The notes under the pieces were generated by a model. The model did no database searches. It was not told where the DNA came from and worked only from the letters and a program-made list of their open reading frames with translations. From contig CAWJKV010000014.1 of assembly GCA_963843555.1 (NCBI GenBank), positions 121,663 through 185,662 of the forward strand: DNA of 64,000 nucleotides, given 5' to 3'. Of the stretch, positions 32,041 to 64,000 are shown in pieces. Both the position numbers and the translations under genes were made by a program. The stretch comes from an uncultured Methanosarcinales archaeon (GTDB taxonomy: Archaea > Halobacteriota > Methanosarcinia > Methanotrichales > Methanotrichaceae). How positions within the stretch are numbered: the first letter of the stretch is position 1; each line of letters begins with the position of its first letter.

Positions 32041-32319
32041 TCATTCCTGCTTCGCCAAGACGATCTCCATCGAAGACACGTTCACCGTTTTGCCTTCCTC
32101 GTTTGGGATGGCCTCTGTGCCGATGGTTATTGCCTTGACGACAAGGTTGGGCATGAACCTGTTCCTGGTGATCTCTGCCGCGTCAACGGCGCGGGAGATG
32201 GCGCGTCCCCGGGCCTTCAAAATGACGCTGGATACTGGTTTATTGAACTGGGTCATCACTGCTAGCACATAGTTCATGACTGGTTTGTCACCGACGTATA
32301 TCACTGCATTGTCATCCAT
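32041..32319 (-). CDS. albA: Chromatin protein Alba
   Basis: [12 protein letters not shown]...[12 protein letters not shown]...VSSMEI. Confidence 0.96.
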
Positions 32320-33231: not shown

Positions 33232-33539
33232 ACGAGAGAGGAAGGGCGGCTGCCGCTGGCCAATTCCGGCCGGTGTGGAAAGTCCCCCCACCACTGGACA
33301 CACAGACATCCCCAAAGGATGTGGGGCGAGAGCTCCGGCTCTGGCACAGAAACGAGACCGGCCAGCGTTAAAGCGATGATGCCGAGAGGCTGAGGTCGCG
33401 CTGGATGCGGATGAAACGGCGAAACCCTGTGGGTGCAAGCCAAAATAGAGCTGAAAAAATTGGACGTCCAGCCAAGCTCGGGTATGGCGCTAAGCTGAAT
33501 GCCGTCTGGAACAGAAGGGGGCTTACTCTCCTCACTCGT
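33232..33539 (+). ncRNA. rnpB: Archaeal RNase P RNA
   Basis: Conserved GGAAAGUCC, ACAGAAAC, GGUGCAAG and ACAGAA...GCUUA motifs; 5' cgagagagga pairs imperfectly with 3' tcctcactcg (P1). Confidence 0.95.
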
Positions 33540-43665: not shown

Positions 43666-43858
43666 CCTGTGGCCATTATGCCCAGGCCGCAGATCCTGCA
43701 TATCTGGATCTCATGCATGGCCTGATCTCACGATTGCAGAGATTCCGTCTCAATCCTGGAGTCAATTTTGCGATCTTCCGAATAGCCAATCGCCATCCTC
43801 ATATTCCCAAAAGATGCTTGTAATACAAATTTATTTCATAAAATTCTCCTTTCTATAC

Positions 43859-44338
43859 TCAAGCCCCTCTCCGAAACTCGATCCAGATGCTGACAATAGA
43901 GATGCTGATCAGGTTCAGGGTCGTGGCAGCATACCAGAGGTAGGATTCCGCCTGGCCGAGCTGCACAATCCAGCCTGACCAGAGGACGAAGCAGATTATG
44001 GAGAAGGAGATCAGGGTATCGAAGGCCAGAAAGAGCCGGGGCCTCCCAAAGAGCCTTCCTGTCTGGGCTATCATGCAGTATTCGACGGGCGAGGCTCTGC
44101 CGGATAGATGAAAGGCGACCCTGGCCATGTTCATGAGCAGATCTGTCGCCGCCCAGGCCACAATCAGCCATCCGAAGGCCGTAAGCGTGGCGGACCTCTG
44201 CTCGGCAGCGGCGCGAAGGGCGAGCAATCCGAAGAGCAGCTTGAAGATGCAGAAGGGAACGCCAATGGTCAGGGCCTGGAAGGTGGGGGTTGAAAAGAAG
44301 CTCTCAATCTTATCCCTTTGCTCGGTTTGCTCCTTCAT
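43859..44338 (-). CDS. Hypothetical multi-pass membrane protein
   Basis: About four hydrophobic helices. Confidence 0.7.
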   Translation of the reverse strand: MKEQTEQRDKIESFFSTPTFQALTIGVPFCIFKLLFGLLALRAAAEQRSATLTAFGWLIVAWAATDLLMNMARVAFHLSGRASPVEYCMIAQTGRLFGRPRLFLAFDTLISFSIICFVLWSGWIVQLGQAESYLWYAATTLNLISISIVSIWIEFRRGA

Positions 44339-44853
44339 TGCCTACAGCCTTGAGTTTCTTAGGCGAAAAGGGTTTGCTTTGGATTTATCTCAGGCTCGTT
44401 TCTGGCGGCTCAGAGAGGCGATAATATCATATTTTCCTATTGTCGGCAAATCCCGGCTCAACAGATGCTGCCAAGGATGACAACAAAACCTGAAGCTAAA
44501 ACCGCAACAAAATGAAGCTGCACTCAATTACTGACTTTCTCCTGAGAATTTAAGCAAATTTGGATCATTTCCCAAATACACGCATAGAAAATTAATATGC
44601 TCAAAAGGGCAATGCGAGTGCGTGGGAAATTGGTTGGAGTTATAGAAGGAATGACATCAATAGAATGTTTGCTGATATATAATTCTATTATTTAAATTAA
44701 GCTTAATTCATAAATCATTACTTTAGAATATAATTGTAATTCTCTGCAAAATGGATTTGGGTAAATCATATGCATAATCTGGGAACTCTTTGCAGAAATT
44801 AATTACAAAAGAAAAATTCTTATATCAAGAGCACTGTATGGACGCCGAGGATT

Positions 44854-45264
44854 ATGCAGGCCAGAACGACTTTGAGCATTCTTATTGCTGAGGATAACCC
44901 GGTAAATCAGAAGGTAGCTTTGATCATACTCAAGAAGCTCGGTTATCAGGCAGATTTGGCATGCAACGGCCATGAGGTCCTGACGGCCCTGGAGGGACAC
45001 GCCTATGATCTGGTGCTCATGGATATCCAGATGCCGGAGATGGACGGAATTGAAGCTACTAAAATCATCCGCAAGCGCTGGCCGCAGGGTCCCAAGATAA
45101 TAGTAGTCACATCGTTCAATCCGGAGATCTGCCGCGAGCTATGCTTTAGCGCCGGGGCAGACGATTTCCTCAACAAACCTGTAACGATGAATTTGCTTGG
45201 TGCGGCCATCGAACGCAATATGGGCTATGCCAGCTGCATCATCCCTGTTTGCCAGCCCGTCTGA
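44854..45264 (+). CDS. Single-domain response regulator (receiver)
   Basis: LIAEDN, LMDIQMPEMDG and FLNKP motifs. Confidence 0.92.
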   Translation: MQARTTLSILIAEDNPVNQKVALIILKKLGYQADLACNGHEVLTALEGHAYDLVLMDIQMPEMDGIEATKIIRKRWPQGPKIIVVTSFNPEICRELCFSAGADDFLNKPVTMNLLGAAIERNMGYASCIIPVCQPV

Positions 45265-45300
45265 AAAGTGAATAAAATTAGCCCATCGCAAAAACCAATT

Positions 45301-47252
45301 CTACTGCCCAAACACGAAGGCCACCTCCTCCCAGGCCTTCTCCAGCAGCTTGCTGTAATAAGCAGCATCAAACTCCGATGCATACTCTTCCGTATCCACC
45401 TCCCATCGGCCGGCGTCCTTTACCACATATCCTATCTCCATGCCGGGCGCCAGGTTTAGCCCCTGCTCTTCATGAGCCTTCACTGCAGAAGCCTCCGCAC
45501 ACCTGCGGGAGTAGTTCAAGCGGCCGACGCGGCGATGGATAGCCAGCTCCCGGACGTCGATGTCCGCATCCACAAGCTCCCGCATGTACTTTGCGCGAAC
45601 TTCTTCTGCGTCGGGTTCCACCATTTGCAGCTCCTCTCGGCTCCTCGCCCCGGCCAGGACCTCGAACAATTCCCTCTGCATTCGCAGCACGTATTCTGGC
45701 GTGTCTCCCTTACGGGCCGCTACCCCCCGGATTTTCATCTTGCCCGTGTCCAGCCTGCCAAAGTAGCGGTTGTATGACCCTGAGCCGTCGCACATGGGCA
45801 GGAAAGCGATCCAGTCATAGGTGTCAACCTCAGTGAGAATGCCCGTCTCCTGCTCCACAGCTTCCTTGTACTTCAATATCGGCTCGCCCATAACCCACAG
45901 GCAATCCACAATGCCGTGCAGAACTATGAAGTCCATCTTCTCTGCCAGCTCCTTGATCTGCATGAGCAGCTCCCGGGAAGCGGCCGTGATCCTCTCATGG
46001 ACCTGGATCTGACCGAACTTGGCGTTCCGGTAGCCTGTGTAGCCGAAGCAGGTGACGAGCATCCACTTCAGGATTGAGTCGATCCCTGCAAACGCCTGGT
46101 CGGTCTTCTTCAGCCTCTTAGTCTCGATACGCAGGTTGAGCAATGAGGCGAGCACTGTGCTGAGGAAGCCCTCGATCTCCGGGTGCTCCAGGGTCTCCGG
46201 GGAGAGGTTGTACTTCACAATGATGGAAGGGTATAGAGAGGTGAAGTCGATCTGGTGGACCTTTTCGTACACCCCGGGCTCGGGCTGAAACATCATGCCG
46301 CCCTTGTCACAGCTTCTCAACTCCGAGATGTTCCTGACAATTTCTGCATCTCGCTTCCGGAAGGGCACGGCCACGCCTCTCCGTAAGGCCTCAAAGACCT
46401 CATAGCTGGAGATCAGCGTGCCGGGCGTGAAGCGGGAGACGAGGTTCGGGGAGAGGCCGGAGAGCCTCGAGGCCATCAGTACGCCTTTCAGCCCGCTCTC
46501 TTGATAGACGAAGCTTTTCGCGGTGTCTATCGAGCACCCGTCCCTCGGGGATCAGAGCACCTTCCTTGTGGTTGACCTTTCCATAGCTCCAATAAGATTT
46601 GGAGGCCATCGGTTTGAACCAGCCGCTGCGGCTGATGGTGGGGTCAAGGCCATACCTTCTGGCCTTGCGGACCAGGAGCGGAACCCAGGTATCGGCATGG
46701 GGTAGAAGAATCAGGTCGGGATTGCAGGACTTGATCAGCTCCAGGAGGTCGGAGATGACTGTTCTCTCTGATCCCTCCAGCCGTTCTCTTCCTGCCATTG
46801 AGGACCTGTACGCGGGAGAAATCTCCTGGCCTGGAAGGATCTCCGGCCACCTCCAAAGCCATTTGGGTCAAGGGAACCTCGAAATCGGGAGAGAACCTGG
46901 ACTCGTCCCGGTCTCCGCAGGGGAAGATGTCGTGCTCGGCCATGTACCTCTGATCCTGTCGGACATCAACATTGTAGAGTTCGGCAGAATAGCGAGTCTG
47001 TATCTCGATCTTCTCCGCAACCTTGCGACCGGCAAAGATCCTGTAGCCCGGGAAGGTGCCGAAGATGGTTCTGAAACTGCATTCTTCAGCCCTGTAGAGA
47101 CTCTCCAGAGCCTCGATCATCTCCCGGTGGGCGGGCGGATCTTTCAGGCGCATGTAGAATGAGGGTGGATAGGAAGCGCTGGTCCTGGTCAGGCCGTTCT
47201 CCCTGCCCCATAGTTCCACGCTGCCTTTATAGTAAGAATCAAAAATCCACAT
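45301..47252 (-). CDS. Family B DNA polymerase, PolB2-like, two frameshifts
   Basis: DFTSLYPSI, KWMLVTCFGY and HGIVDCL (variant of YGDTDS); degenerate exonuclease region. Confidence 0.85.
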
Positions 47253-47422
47253 CTTTCGCCTCTATGCATGCCCGGATGCAGCCAGCATCTTCTGGCTATC
47301 GGTTACACGCCGAGGTGATAAGGACGAGGTGCGTGGAGGGCGAATGTGATGGGAAACGATTGTTATGAGGAGCAGTGTGATGGGGAGCGAATCTGATGCT
47401 GGGGATCAAGAATAATCAGTGC

Positions 47423-47853
47423 TCAAACGGATTTCTCCCAGCCCTGTCCAAAGTCAATCAGAGGCCGGACTTCAGTGACCTCGAACGTAGCCAGCACCCG
47501 AATCATCTCTGCCGCTTGCTCACCGACGATCTTGGCGGTCTTGACTCTTATACATCGTCCAACTGCGGGCCTGATGTGGCATACTCTTTCATCCTGAGAT
47601 AAACTCGGATTCCTTTCCAGTCAAGGATCCCCGGTCCTGGCTCCATTATCATGAATGCGGCATTCGGGTTTTCTTGAAGGTTCGCAAAGGTGCGGCCCAT
47701 GGCAAGCGCCACTATGACCGTATTCTCATCGATCATTTGAGGTGAGCCGTAAACGGCAGAATCTACCTTTCCGTCTTTGCTCGATGTACTTATGACGCCC
47801 ATCCTCGGCTGTTTGTTGAAGTATTCCATTAATTTTGCAGACATATGAATCAT
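47423..47853 (-). CDS. Pyridoxamine 5'-phosphate oxidase-like FMN-binding protein, frameshifted near 47545
   Basis: STSSKDG, RTFANLQENP and GIRVYL, continuing as FEVTEVRPLID. Confidence 0.8.
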
Positions 47854-47931
47854 CCGTTCGGGTTCTTGTTTTGCGGCTTCTTGTCCTCAAGAGTGGAGGG
47901 ATCTATTATACCAAGTAAATAGAATTCCAAT

Positions 47932-48276
47932 CTATAAAGCTGTTGGAGGGCGTTTTATGTCCTCTTTCATCTGCAGGTACAACTCTCGGGTTATCTCTCC
48001 TTTAGCATATCTCTCGTCCAGAATCTCTTCAGAACTCGTCTTGGCATTAGCGCCTCCGGCAGCACGGTATCCCGAGTCTCTCAGGATCAGATATAGTATC
48101 AGGAACAGTATGCCTATCCAGGGTATCACGATAGGCAAACCCCAGAGAAGCCCATTCATGCCTCTTTTCTCTGCGTCCTTGTAGACCAGGTAGGCTATGG
48201 CCACAGAGACCAGCCAGATTAAGGTCATTCCAAATCCCATGAAAGGGAACCAGTTCATCATGTGATAGTATGGCAT
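47932..48276 (-). CDS. SHOCT-domain membrane protein
   Basis: VYKDAEKRGMN..LW and ILDERYAKGEIT motifs. Confidence 0.85.
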   Translation of the reverse strand: MPYYHMMNWFPFMGFGMTLIWLVSVAIAYLVYKDAEKRGMNGLLWGLPIVIPWIGILFLILYLILRDSGYRAAGGANAKTSSEEILDERYAKGEITRELYLQMKEDIKRPPTAL

Positions 48277-48412
48277 TATCAGATCCTCTTGATCCGGAGT
48301 GCCGGAAATTGGCTGCAATGGCCGGAAGCATGTCGACTTCTGACCAAATTATATTCGACGTTAAACGTATATAAGGAGGTGGTACATCTTAACGGCAACG
48401 GGTCGGATCATC

Positions 48413-48860
48413 TTATTTTTTGGCCATCTGCCTTATCTTGTCCCAGCCCGTTCCCCCGACCCGGAGAGAGTGGTCCAGCACTACATCGATGAAGCCGAAG
48501 ATGAGAGGAGCATAAACGGCATAGAAGTCGCGAGCGAAGGACATGGCCTCTTGCAGATCCTGAAAGTGGCGGGTCTCCATCTCTTCTCCCGTCCCGGCAA
48601 TCACGGTTTTTATGTTGCTCTTTGCCACGAAGCTGGAGGCACCGCAGGAGGCCTTGGGAGGCTGTAACGCATCTATATTTACGGGCACCCCGCCATAGCA
48701 TTCATAAGCGTAGCGAATCTGCTCGGCTCTTGTATCTGAACCCTCGGACTTTGCCTCCTCCAGGATATCCTTGTCCATAGATTCCGGCTGAGGGATGAGG
48801 CAGGCGTCAATGACGAAAGAGTATCCATCGCCGCCCTCATCAAGATCTACAGGGTTGTCT
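48413..48860 (-). CDS. C-terminal part of a hypothetical protein in the archaeal segment, 5' end replaced at the junction
   Basis: Moderate-GC codon usage; sequence unrelated to the PD40 repeats it is fused to. Confidence 0.55.
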
Positions 48861-49843
48861 GAGCGGCTGATGTACGCGATCTTGGTTCCATCCGGCGCCC
48901 ACGCCGGTGTCCGCGCCCCCCACTCATCCGCTGTAAGTTGGACGGGCTGACGCCCGTCGACAGGCATTCGATAGATCTGCGTCCGTGCGTCATGCGCCCA
49001 ATCGGCCTGAAACGCGATGCTCCCTCCGTCCGGCGACCAATCCGGCGCGCCGGCTCCTAAGGCGCTATGGCTCGTCGTCAACCGGACGAGAGACACGGTC
49101 CTCGCGCTGATGCCGTTCGAAACCGACGACCAATTCGATTCCTCATCAACTGCCTTCAGCGCAAATTGATAGGTTGTATCGGGCATCAAGCCGGAGATCG
49201 TGCACGTTTGCACCGTACCCGCGGCCCCAGGTGTTGGCGGTTGCTCCGCGCGTGTTGCGACGTCCCAGGTGTCTTCAGAGATCGGAACGAAGGCGTACCT
49301 CAGGTCATAAGTCGAAGCAGTGCCGATAGCCCCGTCGCTCCCCGGCGCAGTCCAGGTCAGCGTCACACGCGAGGCGGTTGCTGACAACACCTCGAGATCT
49401 TCCACTCGCCCTGGAGGAATGGTGTCCGCCACCGTCGCGTTAGCGACATCCGAAAGCCCGGACCAGTTGAGAGCTTCGTCAGCGGCCCTGAGGACGAAGT
49501 ACCACGTGCCGTGGGTCAATCCACCGATCGGAAAGCTTTCCGCCTGACCGCCGGGACGGGGGGCCGGCACCGAGGGTGCCACCGACGCAGTCACCCAACT
49601 GGAGTCCGTGATCACTTCCTTTGCATATCGAATCTGGTACGCTGCCGCCTGACCATTGGCCCCGTCATCGCCCGGCGCCGTCCAACTCAACGTGACCGTT
49701 CCGCCGGTGACGCCCGAGACACGCAGATCCCGTACAGCCGCAGGCGGCACCGTGTCGGCGGGCTGAGGCCTGGTTCCCCCGCCGTCGTTGCAGGACGAGA
49801 GCACGACGAGCAAGGCGCACAACATGACGGCCGTGCATCTCAT
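48861..49843 (-). CDS. Bacterial lipoprotein with two FN3 domains and PD40/TolB repeats, truncated at the junction
   Basis: Lipobox LSSC; LSWTAPGDDG and LTWTAPGSDG; PDWSPDG and PAWAPDG. Confidence 0.8.
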
Positions 49844-49905
49844 GGGATGGCTCCAATCTCCGCGCCGCAGGGTGATGATCGCGCATCTCCTCCGGCATGG
49901 CCGAC

Positions 49906-50925
49906 TCACCTGCCAGGCGTCACCGGCGACGAGTTGCTGTTGCCGGGAGCGGCGGAGCCCGGTTCCGGCTTGGGACAGGGAATGGAGTCGCAGCGCACTT
50001 TCTCGCCCAACGGGATGCCCCCACTTCGAGAGCAGTCGCGCAACGTCAGCAACACGCAGCCGCTGGGGAGGCAACAGCCCCCGAGCAAGGCGTCGTCCCC
50101 GCACGGGAGGTTGTCGCACGTCATTCCATACCCCAGGAACTCCCCTTGATACAACTCACACTCGTGTTTCGTCAGCATGCAGCACACATCGACACAGCAA
50201 GGCGCCAGAATCGCGCGAGGCCCTGGCTGCGGAACATACCCGTCCTGATCGACATCGATCCGCCCGTAGTCGACGACGGGTTCCCCGGCGTATGGGATTT
50301 CTGTTGTCACGAGACGACCGGCCAGGTTCGCCATCGGGTGCGGAATCACCTCGAAGCTCCCCTTGCTCTTCGCCACGATCACAAACCAGTAGAGCGGAAT
50401 GGCGCGCCCTGTCTTCACACGTTCCTTCGTGATGGCGGCGGATATCCCGCCATTCGAGGCCGGCCAGCCGTTCTGGGCGATGCTCATTCCCCCCGCATCG
50501 CACGGTCCGGAGGTTACGAGCCGGGCACCGCCCGAGTACCGGATTCCGAAGGAGAATCCGAGGACTGAACCGACGCTGTCCGGAGGGAAGACCGCGTAGA
50601 GCCCCACGATGTGGGGGATACCGTCGCCCGGCAAGCGAGTCACCGCCTTCGCGGGATCTGTTAGCTGGAGACTGCGGCAGTAGTCGAGCACGCCGTACTC
50701 GTAGCCGAAGTCCTCGACGTTCAGGAGGAGTGCGCCCCCTGCGTTGGTAGGCGCCTTGGCACGCGCGGTGGAGACGAGACCGGCTTCCCCCGTGAGCAAG
50801 GCACCGAGAACGGTCAAGCCGAGAACGAGCGCTCCGCGCGTCAGCGAAGATCCGACACGACTCGGAAGGGACGAGGGGCGGCGCACCGGGCGGATGGTGC
50901 GACCGCGTGCTCTGCGAGTTCTCAT
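49906..50925 (-). CDS. Exported hypothetical protein with C-terminal Cys-rich (CC..C...C..GG...G..C...C) repeats
   Basis: Arg-rich N-terminus and TM/signal segment; two Cys-rich modules. Confidence 0.7.
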   Translation of the reverse strand: MRTRRARGRTIRPVRRPSSLPSRVGSSLTRGALVLGLTVLGALLTGEAGLVSTARAKAPTNAGGALLLNVEDFGYEYGVLDYCRSLQLTDPAKAVTRLPGDGIPHIVGLYAVFPPDSVGSVLGFSFGIRYSGGARLVTSGPCDAGGMSIAQNGWPASNGGISAAITKERVKTGRAIPLYWFVIVAKSKGSFEVIPHPMANLAGRLVTTEIPYAGEPVVDYGRIDVDQDGYVPQPGPRAILAPCCVDVCCMLTKHECELYQGEFLGYGMTCDNLPCGDDALLGGCCLPSGCVLLTLRDCSRSGGIPLGEKVRCDSIPCPKPEPGSAAPGNSNSSPVTPGR

Positions 50926-51263
50926 GTGCTTGTCCTCCGGGGCCTGACGTCCGCGGCCCGGGCCTGAGGTCCACCGCTGTCGAGATTGAGTTCAGCCAGA
51001 GACAGAGAGAATACATGCGGACCGTCGCCGCGGGCCACATAAAAGGCAGCACTGTGCAACCGGGCTAGGCTGGCGACCACGGGGTGTACGCTGACGCCTC
51101 CGTTGAGGAGCGTGACCTCCACGGTCCAGGCCGGCGCAGCTCCCCGCTCTCCGTCCGCCGGCACCGCCATCCATGCGGAATTGCGGACGGACTCGGCGGC
51201 CAGGTCGGCCGCGGAGCAGGTGGAGCAGATCTCGCAGGAACGGCACGGCCTGGCGTCCGTCAT
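50922..51263 (-). CDS. Hypothetical protein with N-terminal CxxCxxCxxC
   Basis: ATGA overlap with the downstream gene; otherwise weak support. Confidence 0.35.
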   Translation of the reverse strand: MTDARPCRSCEICSTCSAADLAAESVRNSAWMAVPADGERGAAPAWTVEVTLLNGGVSVHPVVASLARLHSAAFYVARGDGPHVFSLSLAELNLDSGGPQARAADVRPRRTST

Positions 51264-51515
51264 GGACAGTACCCGCGGAAGACCCAGCTTACCGACATGC
51301 CCGTCGACACCACGGTCCCCTCTCGATCGATTTCCGGTTTGAACCGCTGGCGTGCCGGACGAACCGTGGCACGGACGAGTTGCGACACAGTACAGGTAGT
51401 ACCCGGCTTTCCCATCAGATTGCAGCGATAGTGGAAGTCCGCTTGATCATTCGACACTGGCCCGCCGCGGCCGTAGTGTCTCCCCGTGTTCCACAACCAG
51501 GAGAAAAGGGGGCAT

Positions 51516-53921
51516 ATGATGCCAGAATTTGGGTATACCGGTCGCGCGCGCGTAGCGGAGAAGTCTGAGAAATGGATCCGTTGGATTTTGCGGCCGGCCC
51601 TGGCTGCGATCTTCGCAACCGTGGTGGTCTCGCTGGCCCAGGCGGCCCCGGCGACTCCCGGGCCCCTCGTCTCCATCGCCCGCAGCGCCATCGACGACGT
51701 CCCGGTGCCCTGCACCTCCGCCACCGTGCCGGGCTTTGCCGGCGACGCCTCGGCATCGAGCCTCCCCGCCGAGGATGAGGCGGCCGTGGAATCGGACCGC
51801 GGCCTCGACGTCTGGGATGGCCGGGGACCCTGGGGCGGCAACCTGAAGACCATCATCGCGGACCCGGCCGATGGCAATCGGATGATCGTCGCCGCCGGAC
51901 TCAGCATGGCAAGGGAGGCGGGCGGCGTCTGGGTGAGCACGGACGGCGGGGTCAATTGGAGCGACACGAGCCTACGCGGCATCGTGGTCTATGCGGCAGT
52001 CGCCTCGCCCTCCGAACCGGGCGTGTTCTACGCCGGCGTCTACGATGGCTTCTACCGCTCCACCGACTCCGGCGCCACCTGGACGAGGATCTCCCTCGCC
52101 GCCTCGCTCGTCATCGGCTGCGGCGTGAAGGTTGACGACGGGAACATCGTCATCGCCGGCCTTTCCAGCGGCGCCGGCATTCGCCGTTCCGTCGATCGCG
52201 GGGTGACCTGGAACACGTGCGGCATCAACAGCTACTTCATGAAGGGGCTGGGGACGAGCCCGACCGCCCCCGATCGGATGTATCTGGCCATGAGCGGCGC
52301 GCCGACGTTTTGCTACCGCAGCGACGACGCCGGCCTCACCTGGACGGCGTCGGCTCCGGCCGGTGACGGCTGGGGGCTGTGGGTCGACCCGTTGAACGTC
52401 GATCACGTATTCGCCTCCACCGGCGGTGGCGTCTACCGGACGCTCGACGGCGGCGCAAACTGGACCCTCGTCCTGCCCGGCACGTGCTTCGCCAACTGCA
52501 GCGTGAAGGACGGCGTCGTCTACGCGCCGATCACGGGCTCCGGGCCCTCCGGCCCCGGGGTCTATGAGAGCAACGACGACGGCGCCACCTGGACCTTCTG
52601 CAGCACCGGCATCGTGGCCAACTACTTCCAATGCTCGGGCGCCAGCGCCACCGGGGTGCTCGCCGGTCACTATGGCGGTGTCTACCGCAGCACCGCTCCG
52701 TTCGGCGCGTGGAGCGTTTCCCAGACCGGCATCAACAACGCCTACGTTCGCACCGTCGCCTACTACGCCGACCGGCACGAGCTCTGGGCAGCCACCGATC
52801 AGTCGGGCCTCTGGCGCAGCATGGATGGCGGCGCGACCTGGGAGCTGAAGTCTACGGGTCTCACCAATTGGTCCACCCATCGCCTGGCGCCCAAAGACCA
52901 TGCCCACGACCAGGGCGATCGGATGTACATCACCACCACGACCGGGATCTACCGCTCGACCGACCACGGAGAGACCTGGCAGGCATCGGGCCTCTCGGGA
53001 GAGCTCCTGCGCGGCGTCCTCGTGGACCGCGGCACGCCCGACCGCGTCTGGACGGGCAGCCAGACGACCCAGAAAGTCTGGCGCTCCGAGGACGCAGGCG
53101 CCAACTGGCAGCTCGTCGGGACAGGGATCGGCGCCGGCTTCTATCCCGACTTCCAGGTGGGGAAGAACCCCGCGAACGGCACTCGCCTCTTCCTGAACTA
53201 CGAGCAGCAGACGAACAGCCTCTACTACTCCGACGACCTGGGAACCACCTTCAACGCCGCTACGGGGCTGGGCTCCTCGAACTACCTGCCCGGCGTGACG
53301 GTGCGGGACGACAACCCCGCGCTGGTCTTCTGCGGAACCGGAGCGGGCGTGTACAAGTCGGCCAACTACGGCGCCAGCTTCACCTCCTCGGGACTGACCT
53401 CAGTGATCTGGTCGATTCTCGGGCTGACGTCCGACGGCGTCTATGCGGGACGCAACGTCCAAGGCTGCCAGGCGAGCCACGATGACGGCCTGACCTGGGC
53501 GCCCTACAACACCGGGATCGAGACCCTGGTGAGTTGGGACTTCTGCTACGGCGACCACCCCACCGATCTCTTCGTCGGTCTGCGGGGCCACGGCGTGAAG
53601 CAGATCTCCGCCCCGGTGATCGATGCGGTCGACGGTGAGCAGGGCGGCGTACCGGCCGGGCTCGCGGTTGCTCCAAATCCGTTCCGGACCGCTTCGACGC
53701 TTCGTCTCCTGGCTCCGGTCCGGACGGATCTCGACGTCCGCGTCTTCGACGCCACCGGCCGGGTGGTGATCACGAACCGGTTGACGAGCTCCGGTGGTGC
53801 AGCCTCCTGGACCTGGGACGGCCGCGATTCGGCCGGGCGGCTGCTGCCGAGCGGCACCTACTTCTATGAGGTCCGCGGCGGAGCGGATCGGTACCGCGGA
53901 GAGTGGATGATCGTGCGGTAG
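51516..53921 (+). CDS. Secreted BNR/Asp-box (VPS10/YCF48-like) beta-propeller with C-terminal FlgD-Ig domain
   Basis: Repeated S.D.G.TW; tail APNPF...VFDATGRVV...WDGRD..G..LPSGTYF. Confidence 0.88.
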   Translation: MMPEFGYTGRARVAEKSEKWIRWILRPALAAIFATVVVSLAQAAPATPGPLVSIARSAIDDVPVPCTSATVPGFAGDASASSLPAEDEAAVESDRGLDVWDGRGPWGGNLKTIIADPADGNRMIVAAGLSMAREAGGVWVSTDGGVNWSDTSLRGIVVYAAVASPSEPGVFYAGVYDGFYRSTDSGATWTRISLAASLVIGCGVKVDDGNIVIAGLSSGAGIRRSVDRGVTWNTCGINSYFMKGLGTSPTAPDRMYLAMSGAPTFCYRSDDAGLTWTASAPAGDGWGLWVDPLNVDHVFASTGGGVYRTLDGGANWTLVLPGTCFANCSVKDGVVYAPITGSGPSGPGVYESNDDGATWTFCSTGIVANYFQCSGASATGVLAGHYGGVYRSTAPFGAWSVSQTGINNAYVRTVAYYADRHELWAATDQSGLWRSMDGGATWELKSTGLTNWSTHRLAPKDHAHDQGDRMYITTTTGIYRSTDHGETWQASGLSGELLRGVLVDRGTPDRVWTGSQTTQKVWRSEDAGANWQLVGTGIGAGFYPDFQVGKNPANGTRLFLNYEQQTNSLYYSDDLGTTFNAATGLGSSNYLPGVTVRDDNPALVFCGTGAGVYKSANYGASFTSSGLTSVIWSILGLTSDGVYAGRNVQGCQASHDDGLTWAPYNTGIETLVSWDFCYGDHPTDLFVGLRGHGVKQISAPVIDAVDGEQGGVPAGLAVAPNPFRTASTLRLLAPVRTDLDVRVFDATGRVVITNRLTSSGGAASWTWDGRDSAGRLLPSGTYFYEVRGGADRYRGEWMIVR

Positions 53922-53954
53922 GTCGTCGCGCGGACGACCGCATCGTGTTTCGAA

Positions 53955-53999
53955 ACGAGGGGACGGCAGGGTCGAAAGATCCTGTTCGTCCCCTTGTTG
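53955..53999 (+). terminator. Intrinsic terminator-like hairpin
   Basis: aggggacggcagggtc-gaaa-gatcctgttcgtcccct followed by tgttgt, between convergent genes. Confidence 0.6.
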
Positions 54000-54098
54000 T
54001 ACATGGCGCCTGGTCGGGATCTTGCACGTTTCGTCAAGAATGCGGGGAATGATGGCTTGGGCTGGCGGATCTTGTACTTGACGGACCGGAGACGACAG

Positions 54099-54746
54099 TT
54101 ATCGACTGCGAGCACGCTGGACAACGACCGCAGACGGCCGGAGCCGATCTCCGACACTTCCGCTCGCCGGTACCTGGCACGGCCGCCTTATCTCGATCCG
54201 GACCGACCAAAGTCGGAGAATCCCGACATCCTTCGCGAGCGTGTCAGCGACCGCAAGATAGAAGCTGCCGCCGGCATGCAGGCCCCGGAAGACATCCAGC
54301 GGGTCCCTGTCCGATCCCGACGCGCTGAAGTAGTACGCACCATCCAGCGACTGCGGGCAGGCGTTCGCCACTGCTCCCGACCAACCGGCTCTTCTCGCCC
54401 GGAAGAACTCCACCTCAGCTTCGGCGTCGATCTGACCGTCGTTGTCCTGGTCGTAGAGCAGGCGGAGCGCGACGTCGGCTGTGTTGGGATGATCCAGATC
54501 TACCATCAGGTCCACAGCCCCCAAGATCTCCCCGTTGTCCCCGCGAGAAACCGGCCCCAGGGTGAGTCCCTCGCAATCACCGTCCGGGATCACAGACGGG
54601 GTGCGCATCGCAACGGGTTCGAGTCCCGGCCCGCACGGCACGGCGGCCACGATCGCGGGCGCGCCCGGACTGGCCCCGGTCGATCCTTCGAACGAGCAGC
54701 CCACCATCAGGAGGGCGGTTGAAATGATCCAGCCTGCCGTGTTCAT
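54099..54746 (-). CDS. Lipoprotein with a proprotein convertase P-domain
   Basis: Lipobox MVGC; IPD, VDLDHP..ADVAL.L, and L.VAD....DVG.LR.W motifs. Confidence 0.75.
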   Translation of the reverse strand: MNTAGWIISTALLMVGCSFEGSTGASPGAPAIVAAVPCGPGLEPVAMRTPSVIPDGDCEGLTLGPVSRGDNGEILGAVDLMVDLDHPNTADVALRLLYDQDNDGQIDAEAEVEFFRARRAGWSGAVANACPQSLDGAYYFSASGSDRDPLDVFRGLHAGGSFYLAVADTLAKDVGILRLWSVRIEIRRPCQVPASGSVGDRLRPSAVVVQRARSR

Positions 54747-54969
54747 GTTCTCCTCCCTTCTCGGTCCTCGGGGGGCCTTCGATATCCCCGGGTTGGCACT
54801 CCATGCGAAATCCAGAGCTGGAATCTGCAGAGGTATTTGCGTTCCGCGAACGCATCTCACCGTGGCCCGCGAACGTTACCTGTTGCAGGCAGTTGCAGCG
54901 ACACCCTATCCTTGTCCGGCGCGTGATGGAGTCAAATCCCATGGAGTGTCGGCGAGGAGGCTCGTGGCG

Positions 54970-55626
54970 ATGGACGGCAAGGATCACGAGATCACGAGGA
55001 TCCTCTTCGAACTCCAGACGCACCCCGAAGCGTCCCAGGAAGCCACGAATCGACTGTTCGCCGCCGTTCACGGTGAGTTGCGGCGGATGGCCGCCCGCAT
55101 CATGCGGGATGAGCGGCCGGACCACATCCTGCAGGCGACGGCGCTTGTACATGAGGCGTATCTCCGCCTGGTCGATGTCCGGTCGGTCGACTGGCAGAGC
55201 CGTGCCCACTTCTTCGGGGTCGCCGCACGAGCCATGCGCCAGATCCTCGTCGATCAAGCGCGGGAGCGCGCCACCGCCAAGCGAGGCGGCGGGTTGCGCC
55301 AGGTGACGCTCGATGATCAGCTGTCCCTGACCACCGTGGATGAACTCGACATCCTGAACCTCGATCGGATCCTGACCAGTCTGGCCGAGATGGACAAGCG
55401 GTTGGCCCAAGTCGTGGAGTACCGGGTCTTCGCCGGGATGTCCGTGGAGGAGGTGGCCCTTGTTCTGGGCGTCTCGGTCCGCACCGTCCACAACGACTGG
55501 CGCGTGGCGAAGAAATGGCTGGGTCGAGAACTGTCCCAGAAAGATCCCCCAGCCCTTCCGAACACCTCGAAGTCTCCACCTAGAGTTTCCCCGTCGGATG
55601 GTGCGAGTGGAGGTCCTCATCCTTGA
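54970..55626 (+). CDS. ECF sigma factor of the kinase-associated TIGR02999 type
   Basis: ELRRMAAR.M..ERPDH.LQATALVHEAYLRL, RAHFFGVAARAMRQILVD.AR...AKRGG and DWRVAK.WL. Confidence 0.92.
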   Translation: MDGKDHEITRILFELQTHPEASQEATNRLFAAVHGELRRMAARIMRDERPDHILQATALVHEAYLRLVDVRSVDWQSRAHFFGVAARAMRQILVDQARERATAKRGGGLRQVTLDDQLSLTTVDELDILNLDRILTSLAEMDKRLAQVVEYRVFAGMSVEEVALVLGVSVRTVHNDWRVAKKWLGRELSQKDPPALPNTSKSPPRVSPSDGASGGPHP

Positions 55627-56639
55627 GTGCCCACAACGACAACCGAACGATTGCAGTCGCGAGATTCCCGGGGCTGATCCGTGATGCCCTTCGCGACTTT
55701 CGAAAGATGACAGGGCTCACTGCCGTCACAACGCTGGGTTCGGCATCCTTGGACACGCAAACGGACAGCATGCCGTCGCCTCCTGTCCATCCCCGCTGCG
55801 CAGAACTGGTGCGAAGAACCCTCGACAAAGCCCCTTGCGATGCGGAGTGGCGGAAACATCTCCGATCCGCGGAGAAGGTCCGGGGTTGCTGGATGCATAC
55901 CTGTCCACTCGGGCTGCGTTGCGCGGGCGTTCCGATCATCCTCAACGATGAACTGATCGGCCTGGCCAAGTTCGTCTCCGGTCCGGAGATCCCCAGGGAA
56001 CGGTTTCGCTCCCTCGTCAGCCTTTTGGAAGTGTTGGTCGCTCGACCGGGCCAGGAATTCCAGGTCGCCCTTCTGCGGCAGGAGATCCAGACTCTTCAGG
56101 CCTCGGTGAACCAGTTGCGCTGGATCAAGCGACCGGGTCCGCCCACCGGAAGCGGCGATGACATGCCCCTGACCCGGGAAGAGCCCAGCGACCCGTCCCA
56201 AGACGCCCAGACCCTGATCGGCCAGCTCCTGGAGTACCTGAACGAGCACTATGCCGAAAGCGAACTCTCGCTAGGTCAAATCGCCGATGCGGTAGGCAAG
56301 AACCCGAAATACGTCACGCACCTCTTTGCGCAGCAGGTCGGGGAGCGGATGCGGACGTACATCACCACGCTTCGAGTGCGGCGTGCCTGCGAACTGCTCC
56401 TGCAGACGAATCGGACCATCGCGCAAATCGCTTCCGACTCCGGTTTTGCCCGCACCGTCCAGTTCCAGCAGTCCTTCCGCCGCACCATCGGCGTGACGGC
56501 CTCAGAGTACCGTCAGATCTTCACCGTCGGGGCCCCGCCGATGGATTCCGGGACCCAGCCTCTGGGCATGCGGCGCGGCCACAACCTCAGGCCGCGCCAG
56601 CGGACGTCAACCAAGGTGCGCACGGCAGCGGAATTCTAA
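55623..56639 (+). CDS. PocR-sensor AraC-family transcriptional regulator
   Basis: F..MTG, three conserved Cys including CPLGL..AGVPI; C-terminal AraC double HTH. Confidence 0.88.
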   Translation: MSAHNDNRTIAVARFPGLIRDALRDFRKMTGLTAVTTLGSASLDTQTDSMPSPPVHPRCAELVRRTLDKAPCDAEWRKHLRSAEKVRGCWMHTCPLGLRCAGVPIILNDELIGLAKFVSGPEIPRERFRSLVSLLEVLVARPGQEFQVALLRQEIQTLQASVNQLRWIKRPGPPTGSGDDMPLTREEPSDPSQDAQTLIGQLLEYLNEHYAESELSLGQIADAVGKNPKYVTHLFAQQVGERMRTYITTLRVRRACELLLQTNRTIAQIASDSGFARTVQFQQSFRRTIGVTASEYRQIFTVGAPPMDSGTQPLGMRRGHNLRPRQRTSTKVRTAAEF

Positions 56640-56835
56640 CTTTCCCGCAGCCCGTCCAACTTTTCAGTCTCTAGTCGTCCGTGATGCGGAAGCACAACAT
56701 CGACCGCACTCAGACTTCGCGGCGGGTGATCCGGTACCAGCGGACTTTCCGGAACGGTTTGAGCGTTTGGCTGCGGGACAGATTCACCCAGGAACTCCGG
56801 TGATTGCAGACGGATTTGCTTCTTGGAGGGCTTGT

Positions 56836-57525
56836 ATGCGCAGGTTCTTCGTGCTCGCATCAGTTGCTTTTGTCTTGATGTTCGGGACGTTCCTCCTCTG
56901 CGGCAGCGAGGCGCGGGCGGAGGAACCACAACCAGTCCGGTACGGTCTCACCATGGGCCTCAACATGGGCAAGTTGATCTGGCCTGAAAAGTGGTTGGCC
57001 GACAAAGACGATCGGCTGTCGAAGCCTACGATGCGCTTTGGCTTTGTGGCCGAGTTCTTCACCGCCAACCCGGGGATCAGCATTGGCACGGGCATCGACT
57101 ACCGAATGACCCGAGAAAAGTACCATTACTCCATCGCCGGCGTGCCGCTCTGGACCGATAGGATGGGCACCTATTTCACCGTGCCCGTCCTCATCAAGTA
57201 CACCTTGAATGAGAGCAAGGGCATGTGGCCGTTCTTCGAGCTCGGGCCGCAGGCGGGGTTCCTCCTTTCCTTTACCGGCGAGGATGATCCACCCGGCCGC
57301 CCGGAGGGGGCGCCGGCCGGGCCCCCCATGGAAATGACGCAGTTCACCCGGCGGATGTCCCTGGAACTCCGTGGCGGAGCAGGTATCGAGTTTCCGATGA
57401 GCGGCATGTTCGCGGGAGTCATCGAAGCGGGCTACGAGTACGGTCTGACCAGCATCATACTTGGGAAACTGCACAACCCCACGACGGCGCGGAATCTCTA
57501 TTTCTCGATGGGGGCCAGATTCTGA
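56836..57525 (+). CDS. Outer-membrane beta-barrel (PorT/OMP_b-brl_2-like)
   Basis: Signal peptide, YFTVPVLIKY, GPQAGFLL, YEYGL and terminal Phe. Confidence 0.8.
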   Translation: MRRFFVLASVAFVLMFGTFLLCGSEARAEEPQPVRYGLTMGLNMGKLIWPEKWLADKDDRLSKPTMRFGFVAEFFTANPGISIGTGIDYRMTREKYHYSIAGVPLWTDRMGTYFTVPVLIKYTLNESKGMWPFFELGPQAGFLLSFTGEDDPPGRPEGAPAGPPMEMTQFTRRMSLELRGGAGIEFPMSGMFAGVIEAGYEYGLTSIILGKLHNPTTARNLYFSMGARF

Positions 57526-57550
57526 TCCTTCGCCAGAAAGGGAACCTAAC

Positions 57551-58051
57551 ATGTCACGCCAACGATCCTGGGCAGTTTGCCTCGTGGCCATCGTTACGGC
57601 CGGGTTGACCGGGCTGGCCGGCCCGTTCGCCGCGGCCCAGGTCGCCACTCCGGCACCGATCCTCAAACCGGTCTTCATAGTCCTGACGAGTGGGGTTTCC
57701 GACACGCCTCGCTGCATGATGGCTTTCGGACTTGCCGAGAGCGCCCTGGACGCGGGTCGGAAAGTTGTCGTCTACCTGGATGTCAGCGCACCCGAGCTGG
57801 CCAGGAAGAACAAGTCGGACAAGCCCTTCGTCGCCGGCCGCCGCACGGCTGCGGCAAGAGGCATGGAGGCGAGCGCTTCTCTGCAGAAGGCGCTTGGTGC
57901 GCTGATGGCCAAAGGCGCGAAGGTCTATGTGTGCCCCATGTGCATCAAGACCCTGAAGATCACCCAGGACTCGCTGCTGGACGGCATCACCATCTTGACC
58001 GACAGCGAACTCCTGGACATGACGAGTGACGCCACGGTGCTCTCGTACTGA
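57551..58051 (+). CDS. Exported DsrE/F-like protein
   Basis: Signal peptide, V.VYLDV.AP.L and VYVCPMC..LSY. Confidence 0.8.
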   Translation: MSRQRSWAVCLVAIVTAGLTGLAGPFAAAQVATPAPILKPVFIVLTSGVSDTPRCMMAFGLAESALDAGRKVVVYLDVSAPELARKNKSDKPFVAGRRTAAARGMEASASLQKALGALMAKGAKVYVCPMCIKTLKITQDSLLDGITILTDSELLDMTSDATVLSY

Positions 58052-58175
58052 CCGGACCTGCATTGGGGAACGGGAGAAACGCCTTGAACTCTTAGCTCGG
58101 CGGCTGCGAATTGTTCGAATTCGATGATCCGGATCCGGACCGTGGCACGGCCCATCTGCTGGAGGGATCTGCAGG

Positions 58176-61242
<3,067 letters not shown>

Positions 61243-61437
61243 GTCCGATCCTTGGTTACGGCCCCAAACCCAGCGGCCGTTTCAAGCGGTTGACCGGCTG
61301 AGACGGGGTGCCCGGTGCTCCCCCGCTTCCCGCCTCCGGAGCGGTGCCGAGTCGGATTCCGCTGAGCAGATTTACACGAAGGAGTCCTGCACCGCGATTG
61401 CGCCGCGGACGTAACAGCCCGCCCAAAAGCCGCGTCT

Positions 61438-62477
61438 TCACGGCATCTGCTCCGGCAGTCCCGTGATCTGGCGCTCCTCGAGGATGCGGTTCTCGTCGAA
61501 CCGGATGATCCACAGCGCAAAGTAGGTCCCACAATTCGAGATTCGGGACACGACGACGGCCTTCTCGTCCGGCGAGAAATCGAAGGATACCCCCAAGGGG
61601 ATTTGTAGGTTCCAGTTCAGGAAGGGCCGGGGTGTGGATCCGTTTCCGTCGATCACCCACCAATCCGGATAGTCGGGATCCGGGCCCGAGTGGTTGTTCA
61701 CGTGGAAGACGATCTCCGCGCCGTGACGAAACCACTTGGGGAATTCGCATGTCCAACCGGTGCGGGTCAGGCGGACTTCCCGACTCGAGTCCGGCCACAC
61801 CCGAAACACCTCCAGGCCTGCTCCCGGGACATAGTGGGTATAGATGAAGCTCTTGCCCGACAGATCCCATCGGGGCGAGCCTCCTCCCAGGGGTGTGCCG
61901 TCGGCCAGAAGGAGACTGTGGCTCTCCAGCGTAACGGTGTCCGCGATCCGGATTCCTCCGGAATCGGCCACGCTGCCCTCCTCGGGAGAGCCAACGTAGA
62001 TAAGATGGCGTCCATCCGGATGCCAGTCCGGCGTCTGCACCATAGCCTGATGTGGATCTGCGTGACCTCGCGTGTGTCCATGTCCAGGACGAAGATCGCT
62101 CCCGCCCAGTAGTATGCGAGCTTCCTTCCGTCCGGAGAGAATCGCAGCCAATGCGCCCAGTACATCGGGCGGGTCACCAGCTCCGGCTTGCTGACGCTGT
62201 CCGGGTAGACCCGGACGATGTAGATCCCGTGCGGCGCCTGTTCGGGTACGAATGCCTCGTGCTGGAAAGCGATCGTCGTCCCGTCCGGCGACCAGGCAGG
62301 ATGCCAATCTTCTGCGACCAGGTTGGTGTCCGCAGGAGAGTCGCAAGGCGGAGGAGGGGGAGGAGGCGGTGGAGGCGGTTCCGCCGGCTTCGTGGCCTTC
62401 TCTTGGGCGCAGGCAGCCAGAGAAAGGAGCACGATCAGGGTGGCTATAGAAGGCCACCGCCCACGCACCTTGTTCAT
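61438..62477 (-). CDS. TolB/PD40-repeat lipoprotein, frameshifted near 62045
   Basis: Lipobox LAAC, poly-Pro linker, PAWSPDG, FSPDG and PDWHPDG. Confidence 0.8.
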
Positions 62478-62567
62478 GGCTGCCTCCGCCGACCCCACTC
62501 GTCCCCCGCGGGTCCCATCAGCGGATGAGCCGGCCGCCGGCGGAGAACACTGAGTCGGCCGATCTTC

Positions 62568-62996
62568 TCATTTCAGCGGGTTGCGGTGAACAAGACCGGC
62601 GAATCTCTGGTAGTCGTTATCCGCGGAGTAGAGCGTGGCCCCGTGCTCGATCGCCATCGCAGCGAGGTGCGCGTCGGAGGTCAGGTTCCCCGCTGTGCCG
62701 CTGCCGGCCAACAGAGATCGGAGAATGCGCCAATGGTCCCGGCCCGGGGAGATGGTCTCGACGCACGGCTGCTCCAGCCAGGTCTCCACGTATTCGAGCG
62801 CCTGCTCGGGTGGAAGCTGGCGGCGAAGAACACCCGGCCGAGTCGTAATTCGAAGAAACGCGAGCAGAACCACCCATGCGAGTCCGACCGGGTCACTTCG
62901 CGACAGTGTCTGTTCCAGCCACGCGTGCGCCCGCCGATGGTGCGGCGAATCGGAGTCCACGGCATAGATCAACAGGTTTGCATCGACCACGATCAC
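62568..62996 (-). CDS. vapC: Type II toxin VapC (PIN domain)
   Basis: VDANLLIYA...DAHLAAMAIEHGA.LYSAD.DY. Confidence 0.92.
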   Translation of the reverse strand: MIVVDANLLIYAVDSDSPHHRRAHAWLEQTLSRSDPVGLAWVVLLAFLRITTRPGVLRRQLPPEQALEYVETWLEQPCVETISPGRDHWRILRSLLAGSGTAGNLTSDAHLAAMAIEHGATLYSADNDYQRFAGLVHRNPLK

Positions 62997-63259
62997 CGGC
63001 GCTGCTCCAGCTTCCTGGCGATCTCCAGATCCTCAAGCGCGTCCGCCAGCTGCAGTGCCTTGGTCAGGTCCACGCCGGGATTGACCCCGCCCAGGGACGC
63101 CGGCTTGAGCCGGTATTGTTTGGGGCGGGGCCGGGCCCCTCGGGCCAGACCGGCCCGAAGAGTCTCGTCGACGATATCCCTGAAGGACTTGCCCGAGCGA
63201 TGGGCCAGATCCTTCAGCGTCTTGAAGAGCGATTCCTCTATCGTGAGTGTGGTCCTCAT
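62993..63259 (-). CDS. vapB: VapB-type RHH antitoxin
   Basis: MRTTLTIE..L...K..A...GKSF..IV.E.LR.GL; 4-bp overlap with vapC. Confidence 0.85.
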   Translation of the reverse strand: MRTTLTIEESLFKTLKDLAHRSGKSFRDIVDETLRAGLARGARPRPKQYRLKPASLGGVNPGVDLTKALQLADALEDLEIARKLEQRR

Positions 63260-63305
63260 GGAGACATCATAGCACACAGGCCCAGGACATCAAGATGCCA
63301 CATCC
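63260..63305 (-). promoter_or_regulatory. vapBC sigma70-type promoter (probably leaderless) with operator-like inverted repeat
   Basis: TTGATG-N16-TATGAT with extended TG, 6 nt before the ATG; catc-aa-gatg palindrome overlaps the -35. Confidence 0.6.
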
Positions 63306-63370
63306 TTGCCAGCGTTGCCCGGCCCGAACCGTGTCGGACCGAGGGCGCCCGCGCTCGAAGGCCACGTCCT

Positions 63371-64000
63371 CTATCCCGGCCTTTCCAGAACCTGGTACTG
63401 CACCGCTTCCGCGACATGCTCCAGCGCGATCTCCTCCGCGCCCGCCAGGTCCGCGATCGTCCGCGCCACCCGCAGGCACCGGTGCGCCGCCCGCGCGCTG
63501 AGCGAGAACGACTCCACCGCTTTCTGTAGAAGCGCCGTCGACTCGAGATCGAGCCGGCAGAACGCGTCGAGTTCGGCCAGACCCATGTCGGCGTTGACCC
63601 GCACGCGGGGACGGCCTTCGAACCGGCGCGTTGGATCGCGCGCGCAGCCGCCACGCGCCGGCGAATGGCAGCGGAGTCGTCACCCGAGGAGTCGACGGGA
63701 TGGCGGCGTTCCGGCCGCTCGGGATCCGCGTCGCGGCCGCTGCTGGACGCAGCACTCGCGTTCGGCGAGCGCGCTGCCGCCTCGAGCGAGCTGCGTTCGC
63801 GTCCAGCGGCGAACGGGCGTTCGTGGTTGCGCGGCGTCCGCAGCAAGCTCCCGCGCCGTCACCGCCGGCACCTCGACATGCATGTCGATCCGGTCCAGCA
63901 GCGGCCCGCTCAGCCGCGCCCTGTACAACTGCACCTGCCGCGGCGTGCACTTGCACGGTTTCCGCGGATGCCCGAGGAACCCGCAAGGACACGGATTCGA
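63371..64000 (-). CDS. comM: YifB/ComM Mg-chelatase-like ATPase, C-terminal part, frameshifted
   Basis: [17 protein letters not shown] and [21 protein letters not shown]...H.AEA.QY. Confidence 0.88.

Follow-up and report, generated by a model that had tools for sequence, protein, structure and literature searches.

A contig end joining methanogen and Eisenbacteria-like DNA within one open reading frame is most likely an artefact of sequencing or assembly

The window and its archaeal side

The window analysed here, 64,000 bases long, forms the end of contig C14 (185,662 bases in total) of G000, a species-representative genome of 18 contigs and 2.68 Mb that is rated 82% complete and 3.05% contaminated. 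The host is a methanogen, as indicated by McrA on contig C5. Left of a join at 48,852, the window encodes LonB and AglJ, each above its NCBIfam cut-off, in addition to Alba (32,119-32,304) and the archaeal RNase P RNA (33,234-33,537, plus strand; Rfam RF00373, 223.5 bits). These markers agree with the methanogen-like character that an earlier note, made from the letters of this DNA, had assigned to the left side.

An archaeal family-B DNA polymerase (PF00136) occupies 45,301-47,252 on the minus strand, and comparison with genome G043 revealed frameshifts in it near 46,530 and 46,780. The gene carries an extra base at 46,781 relative to all four sequencing runs compared, so consensus errors are the likely cause of the frameshifts. 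In G000, G043, G046 and G076, the polymerase shares a 5-kb block with the native 182-residue gene (P0242, P0243) described below. Synteny with G043, G046 and G076 spans only 43,850-48,850 of the window. The break at 43,850 lies near a 120-base repeat found on several contigs, and the next G076 DNA matches contig C17; this break may represent either an ordinary rearrangement or a second mis-join.

An open reading frame across the archaeal-bacterial join

The join falls within an open reading frame on the minus strand (48,413-50,119), which stays open for 568 residues from a GTG codon. The true start is likely the ATG at 49,843, giving a protein of 476 residues, because this is where the homologues start and because Cys18 is almost always conserved. 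This frame combines 330 codons from the 5' end of a bacterial lipoprotein gene (48,853-49,843, minus strand) with the 3' part of a conserved methanogen gene (48,413-48,852, minus strand). Clipped contigs of other runs and DNA comparison with G076 place the junction at 48,852/48,853, within codon 331 of the fused frame (Pro, ...SRSDN-P-VDLDEGG), of which the first base is bacterial and the last two are archaeal. The position set by homology lies a few codons from the split proposed in the earlier note. The abrupt GC switch claimed near 48,860 is borne out, with a GC content of 51.7% left of 48,852 versus 65.0% right of it, and a change point at 48,863 in a third-order Markov model.

No inserted bases were seen at the join, with neither an adapter-like insert nor a repeat pair ending there. 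It may contain microhomology, since the donor's own continuation was not found; the best protein match for that continuation, in five Eisenbacteria-phylum genomes, reaches about 50%. A second copy of the junction flanks was found nowhere in G000, and the 64-kb window has no tRNA gene. A profile scan of the fused frame and the 15 other frames of the tail, a block cut by the contig end, gave no match to an integrase or transposase. Thus the claim that no integrase, tRNA or repeat marks the join holds within this scope. The tail runs to the end of C14, and therefore no right-hand junction is in view.

The join does not respect domain borders, as it cuts the bacterial propeller after two repeats and leaves the archaeal protein without the 37 conserved residues at its N-terminus. 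The fused protein is the only member of its cluster and occurs on a single contig, and a weak search for longer proteins with the archaeal domain returned only the fused frame itself among 295 candidates. The 476-residue fusion is already present in the NCBI and ENA protein sets. We infer that, when two coding pieces are joined at random, strand and frame are preserved in about one case in six; one in-frame join among the three found in this genome therefore needs no explanation.

The bacterial half is a truncated FN3-PD40 lipoprotein

The bacterial half consists of a signal peptide with Cys18, two FN3 domains and two PD40 repeats. Pfam analysis of the fused frame revealed two fn3 stretches (E 1e-16) and PD40, in line with the earlier description of an FN3/PD40 lipoprotein that runs in frame into an unrelated protein; both genes are cut. 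Among the 299 homologues found, 119 are listed, 20 of which cover the query end to end. The bacterial part has two W[SA]P[DE]G repeats, compared to four to six in 19 of the 20 full-length homologues, which extend 187-221 residues further; the remaining one has two repeats and 133 further residues. The propeller thus indeed stops after two blades, as noted earlier, and about 200 residues of it are absent. The archaeal domain occurs in none of the 119 listed homologues.

The named full-length matches belong to Candidatus Eisenbacteria, and the homologues comprise 491-567 residues. The Eisenbacteria FN3-FN3-PD40 lipoproteins, for example P0012 and P0024, share with the window copy the signal-peptide cysteine, the two FN3 domains and PD40, at 44-50% identity over 330 residues. 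However, a lipoprotein of this type would be expected to have a complete propeller and an overall length of about 520-560 residues, whereas the window copy halts after two repeats, at 330 residues.

The archaeal half is a truncated methanogen gene

The archaeal half covers residues 38-182 and the stop codon of a conserved 182-residue methanogen protein, the first 37 codons being absent. Its intact counterpart P0243 (182 residues) aligns from residue 38 and is identical at 143 of 145 residues (99%); P0243 was found on 13 public contigs, compared to one for the fusion. The gene is present in 53 of the 58 other genomes of the genus, with 56-95% identity across the aligned portion. At 28 of the 29 loci examined (16 identified by pattern and 12 by reading translations, one of these cut just short of the start codon), about 37 further N-terminal residues precede the VDL-equivalent position, and the remaining locus is truncated by its own contig end. 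Upstream of the gene, the 27 loci with long enough flanks have 41-54% GC. Neither Pfam nor NCBIfam gave a match for the 151-residue piece, and the full 182 residues had no usable match in the Atlas.

Four runs that contain close relatives (X1, X2, X3 and X14), being other strains than the source, were compared with the window, and contigs of two of them (X1 and X2) are clipped at 48,852. In X2, a contig of 2,349 bases tracks positions 46,640-48,852 of the window before diverging for 142 letters, the shown start of which encodes the native residues preceding VDL. These loose-end letters have no exact match among 177 loci compared, as expected for a different strain. The alignment of the X1 contig also stops at 48,852, with 56 letters left over, and the X3 and X14 contigs stop short of the join (at 48,509 and 48,769) and are thus uninformative on it. 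Neither the absent 5' end nor the stretch of roughly 1.4 kb that precedes it in G076 was found in the G000 assembly, barring the 120-base repeat.

Gene content and affiliation of the bacterial tail

The bacterial tail comprises 15,148 bases of 65% GC (48,853-64,000) and reaches the end of C14. Beyond the lipoprotein gene lies a frame of 339 residues (49,906-50,925, minus strand) with no Pfam family, the DNA relatives of which are in the Eisenbacteria-phylum genomes G080 and G081 (68-69%). It is followed on the plus strand by a BNR/Sortilin-repeat protein with a C-terminal FlgD-Ig domain (51,486-53,921; Pfam), 57% identical to a G092 protein; an ECF sigma factor (54,535-55,626), the domain of which starts from residue 152 (PF07638; TIGR02999, 205.5 bits against a cut-off of 126.15); a PocR-AraC regulator (55,623-56,639; Pfam); an outer-membrane beta-barrel protein (56,767-57,525; PF13568, 43 bits against a cut-off of 27); a DsrE-like protein (57,461-58,051; PF02635); and a Ser/Thr kinase with a PD40 propeller (58,176-61,242; Pfam), which is frameshifted near 60,100 according to the frame change against homologues. 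On the minus strand, a PD40 lipoprotein, apparently split into two overlapping frames judging from the layout of the open frames, spans 61,438-62,498 (PD40 match). A gene at 62,571-63,032 (minus strand) is assigned to the PIN-domain (VapC-like) family by a weak match on a 39-residue piece, below the cut-off, and is 89% identical to a G080 protein; a small antitoxin-like frame precedes it, and we take the two to be a VapBC pair. The last gene, cut by the contig end, is a 3' piece of ComM/YifB (63,383-64,000, minus strand), which matches TIGR00368 at positions 346-400 and 421-498, below the cut-off. The barrel, the sigma factor and the ComM/YifB piece sustain the bacterial character that the earlier note had given to the right side.

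As DNA, the tail matches none of the 58 genus relatives. By contrast, 165 of the 206 genomes in the phylum of an Eisenbacteria-labelled record match parts of it, the best at 81% over 1.44 kb. Most of these matches fall in the kinase, at about 67-71%, and are a weak sign of kinship. G080 has in common with the tail the 1.44-kb PIN-ComM block at 81%, and G092 has the BNR and AraC genes at 69-73%. Judged by these resemblances, the donor is Eisenbacteria-like. An exact 27-base scan of metagenome contigs for the donor and its continuation gave two matches, both chance matches to the PD40 motif in unrelated genes. Correlation of tetranucleotide z-scores for pieces of 4-21 kb was also tried and discarded as uninformative, since the tail gave 0.41-0.60 against the host and 0.42-0.61 against the Eisenbacteria loci.

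The ComM/YifB 3' piece recurs at four loci of three Eisenbacteria-phylum genomes, namely L174 (G081:C5), L175 (G080:C53), L176 (G080:C1) and L177 (G092:C3). Each locus has two to four copies within 6-11 kb, with other DNA between the copies, and at least two of the copies at these loci are short stand-alone frames of about 180-230 residues. A gene that is presumably a SelB-like GTPase adjoins two of the four loci. The repeated pieces are possibly tandem duplications of the comM 3' end, arising from repeated site-specific insertions.

Bacterial tails on other contig ends of the genome

A composition scan of G000 in 884 three-kilobase windows revealed as its strongest outliers the tail of C14, the ends of C15, C18 and C7, and an interior part of C9. 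High-GC tails of bacterial DNA occur on three of the 36 contig ends, and their donors belong to two groups or more.

Contig C18 begins with a bacterial tail of 23.5 kb (C18:1-23,520; L016, L013). C18:23,521 is the exact start of the matches to the genus in 29 of 40 genomes, and in five more the start lies within three bases of it; to the left, the matches listed include only two short weak ones, from a single genome. At C18:23,521 an archaeal gene, which we take to be a DHH-motif gene, is cut mid-frame after HINPHL, and its relatives extend more than 170 residues further. The named matches of a protein of this tail are Ramlibacter and Caenimonas (55-63%), which suggests that the tail is Ramlibacter-like. 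Contig C15 carries a bacterial tail over its last 7.5 kb (about 97,830-105,352; L017; 66-73% GC). The change point near 97,833 interrupts a bacterial prepilin-type gene whose clusters are entirely bacterial and of mixed phyla. A multi-copy IS-like element lies about 280 bases before this join, and the tail appears heavily frameshifted in the printed open frames.

The end of C7 (about 225,064-232,072; L015) differs in composition, with 33% GC over its last 7 kb, and contains frames that are presumably integrase-like and restriction-modification-like. Either a real mobile element or a fourth chimera would account for it, and in view of the former possibility it is not counted among the chimeric ends. 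The interior outlier, C9:36,000-48,000, owes its composition to very long repeat-built frames, with open frames of 1,539 and 2,801 residues and near-identical repeats of about 125 residues. In two relatives, the loci corresponding to the C14 and C18 joins sit on one contig 21-25 kb apart (G043:C80:78,003 and 103,091; G046:C40:60,196 and 81,267), a proximity that may be due to chance.

Origin of the join

We propose that the bacterial tail on C14 results from chimeric long reads or assembler mis-joins and not from gene transfer, with a probability of about 95%. The earlier note had likewise ranked a chimeric read or misassembly first, and the two cut genes, the native continuation found elsewhere, the terminal tail and the two similar ends all speak for it. 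The artefact is favoured because P0243 is intact on 13 contigs against one for the fusion, because the X2 contig leaves the window at 48,852 into native 5' sequence, and because the tail is terminal and absent from all 58 genus genomes. It is further favoured because no mobile-element parts were found at the join or in the scanned frames of the tail and no second copy of the flanks in the genome, and because the start of C18 and the end of C15 carry gene-cutting bacterial tails as well. The 476-residue fusion is predicted to be absent from any cell.

G000 appears to be a long-read assembly of modest coverage, because it has 18 contigs for 2.68 Mb together with scattered frameshifts. In the somewhat favoured route, two unrelated fragments would have been ligated, or read as one, to give a chimeric long read; where the methanogen coverage would have run out, this read alone would reach past 48,852, and the assembler would extend C14 along it. 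An assembler mis-join without any chimeric read is a plausible but less favoured route. The tail is fairly clean, with one frameshift shown by homology of partial coverage and another apparent from the layout of the open frames. These are fewer than expected of a single raw noisy read, which counts against that form of the route; they fit polishing with donor reads, or accurate reads, better. The lack of an adapter-like insert at the join and the failure to find the donor's own continuation also weigh against the artefact reading. On the host side, alignment of about 32 kb of C14 to G043 shows nine frameshift sites, three of which lie within 5 kb of the join. The density of frameshifts was considered as a proxy for coverage (nine host-side versus one in the tail) and set aside, as the sites are too few and differently covered for the two sides to be ranked. 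A search for the source run with 47,400-50,400 did not yield one: 20 of the 24 listed runs hold part of this segment, with a best share of words of 0.23. In the four runs compared, no joint crosses 48,852 and the depth past 49,010 is near zero except for scattered short matches, a lack of cover that carries no weight and is not taken as evidence.

A real and very recent transfer would mean that illegitimate recombination brought 15 kb or more of Eisenbacteria-like DNA into the methanogen chromosome, disrupting both genes and producing an in-frame fusion, and that the contig ends before the far junction. Put more concretely, one methanogen strain would have taken up the DNA by homology-free end joining, before decay, with the tails of C15 and C18 as additional uptakes of this kind. 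The clean, in-frame join and the mostly intact frames of the tail are compatible with such an event, relatives without the tail would fit one private to a strain, and an influx of bacterial genes into Methanosarcina is reported in the accessible part of PMC4455057. However, three events would be needed in one genome, each at a contig end and from at least two donors, and no comparable alien high-GC tract lies inside any contig, the strong interior outlier at 36-48 kb of C9 being repeat-rich frames. The insertion would also disrupt a gene that 53 of 58 relatives retain, the missing 5' end of which is nowhere else in the 82%-complete assembly, and the composition of the tail shows no drift toward the host. 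Moreover, outer-membrane barrels, lipoproteins and ECF sigma factors depend on a diderm envelope and a bacterial RNA polymerase, and we share the earlier view that outer-membrane and sigma genes would be useless in an archaeon. Both the general and the single-strain form of transfer are therefore very improbable.

Alternatively, the two DNAs might be linked by an integrative or conjugative element, or by a repeat (for example an IS), whether in the cell or because the assembler was misled at a shared repeat; this is the least probable reading. It draws on the C15 join, about 280 bases beyond the multi-copy IS-like element, and on the ComM 3' piece in which the tail of the window ends, comM being a known insertion target. 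At 48,852, however, there is no repeat, tRNA, or match to an integrase or transposase, and the join falls inside a codon of two unrelated genes. In addition, the ComM-PIN block already exists in an Eisenbacteria-phylum genome at 81%, and is therefore part of the donor's chromosome. This reading is thus largely refuted at the C14 junction.

Under the preferred artefact reading, the join exists in the sequence file but most likely in no cell, and most likely has no biological significance. The case bears on quality control, as bacterial DNA totalling about 46 kb (15.1, 23.5 and 7.5 kb) sits on three contig ends of a species-representative genome rated 3.05% contaminated. The bacterial genes on C14 above 170,514, on C18 below 23,521 and on C15 above about 97,830 should be discarded for this archaeon. 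If the join were true, it would be a direct snapshot of a large inter-domain transfer without a mobile element.

Comparison with known systems

According to the accessible part of 10.1101/2025.04.22.649783, multi-domain chimeric contigs occur in assemblies by metaMDBG, metaFlye and hifiasm-meta, including Euryarchaeota joined to several bacterial phyla. C14 resembles the contigs described there in its abrupt shift of GC and taxonomy, in the archaeal-bacterial join, in the presence of more than one foreign taxon in the genome, and in independent sequence being clipped at the breakpoint. It differs in that the clipping and coverage in that text come from the source reads, compared to only contigs of other samples for C14, and in that the foreign pieces of the present genome sit at contig ends.

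Ligation libraries are described as giving false-positive cross-chimeric nanopore reads in the accessible text of PMC13141652. Such reads would match the blunt, repeat-free join on C14 and its tail of about one read length. Whereas the reads in that text were identified by a raw-signal signature, the C14 join is known from assembled sequence.

Compared to genomic islands and to the bacterial gene influx into methanogens (PMC4455057), C14 likewise presents a block of foreign composition beside host DNA. Unlike such islands, its tail shows no integrase match, att repeat, tRNA site or return to host DNA, is found in none of 58 relatives, and is bordered by two genes that are both cut.
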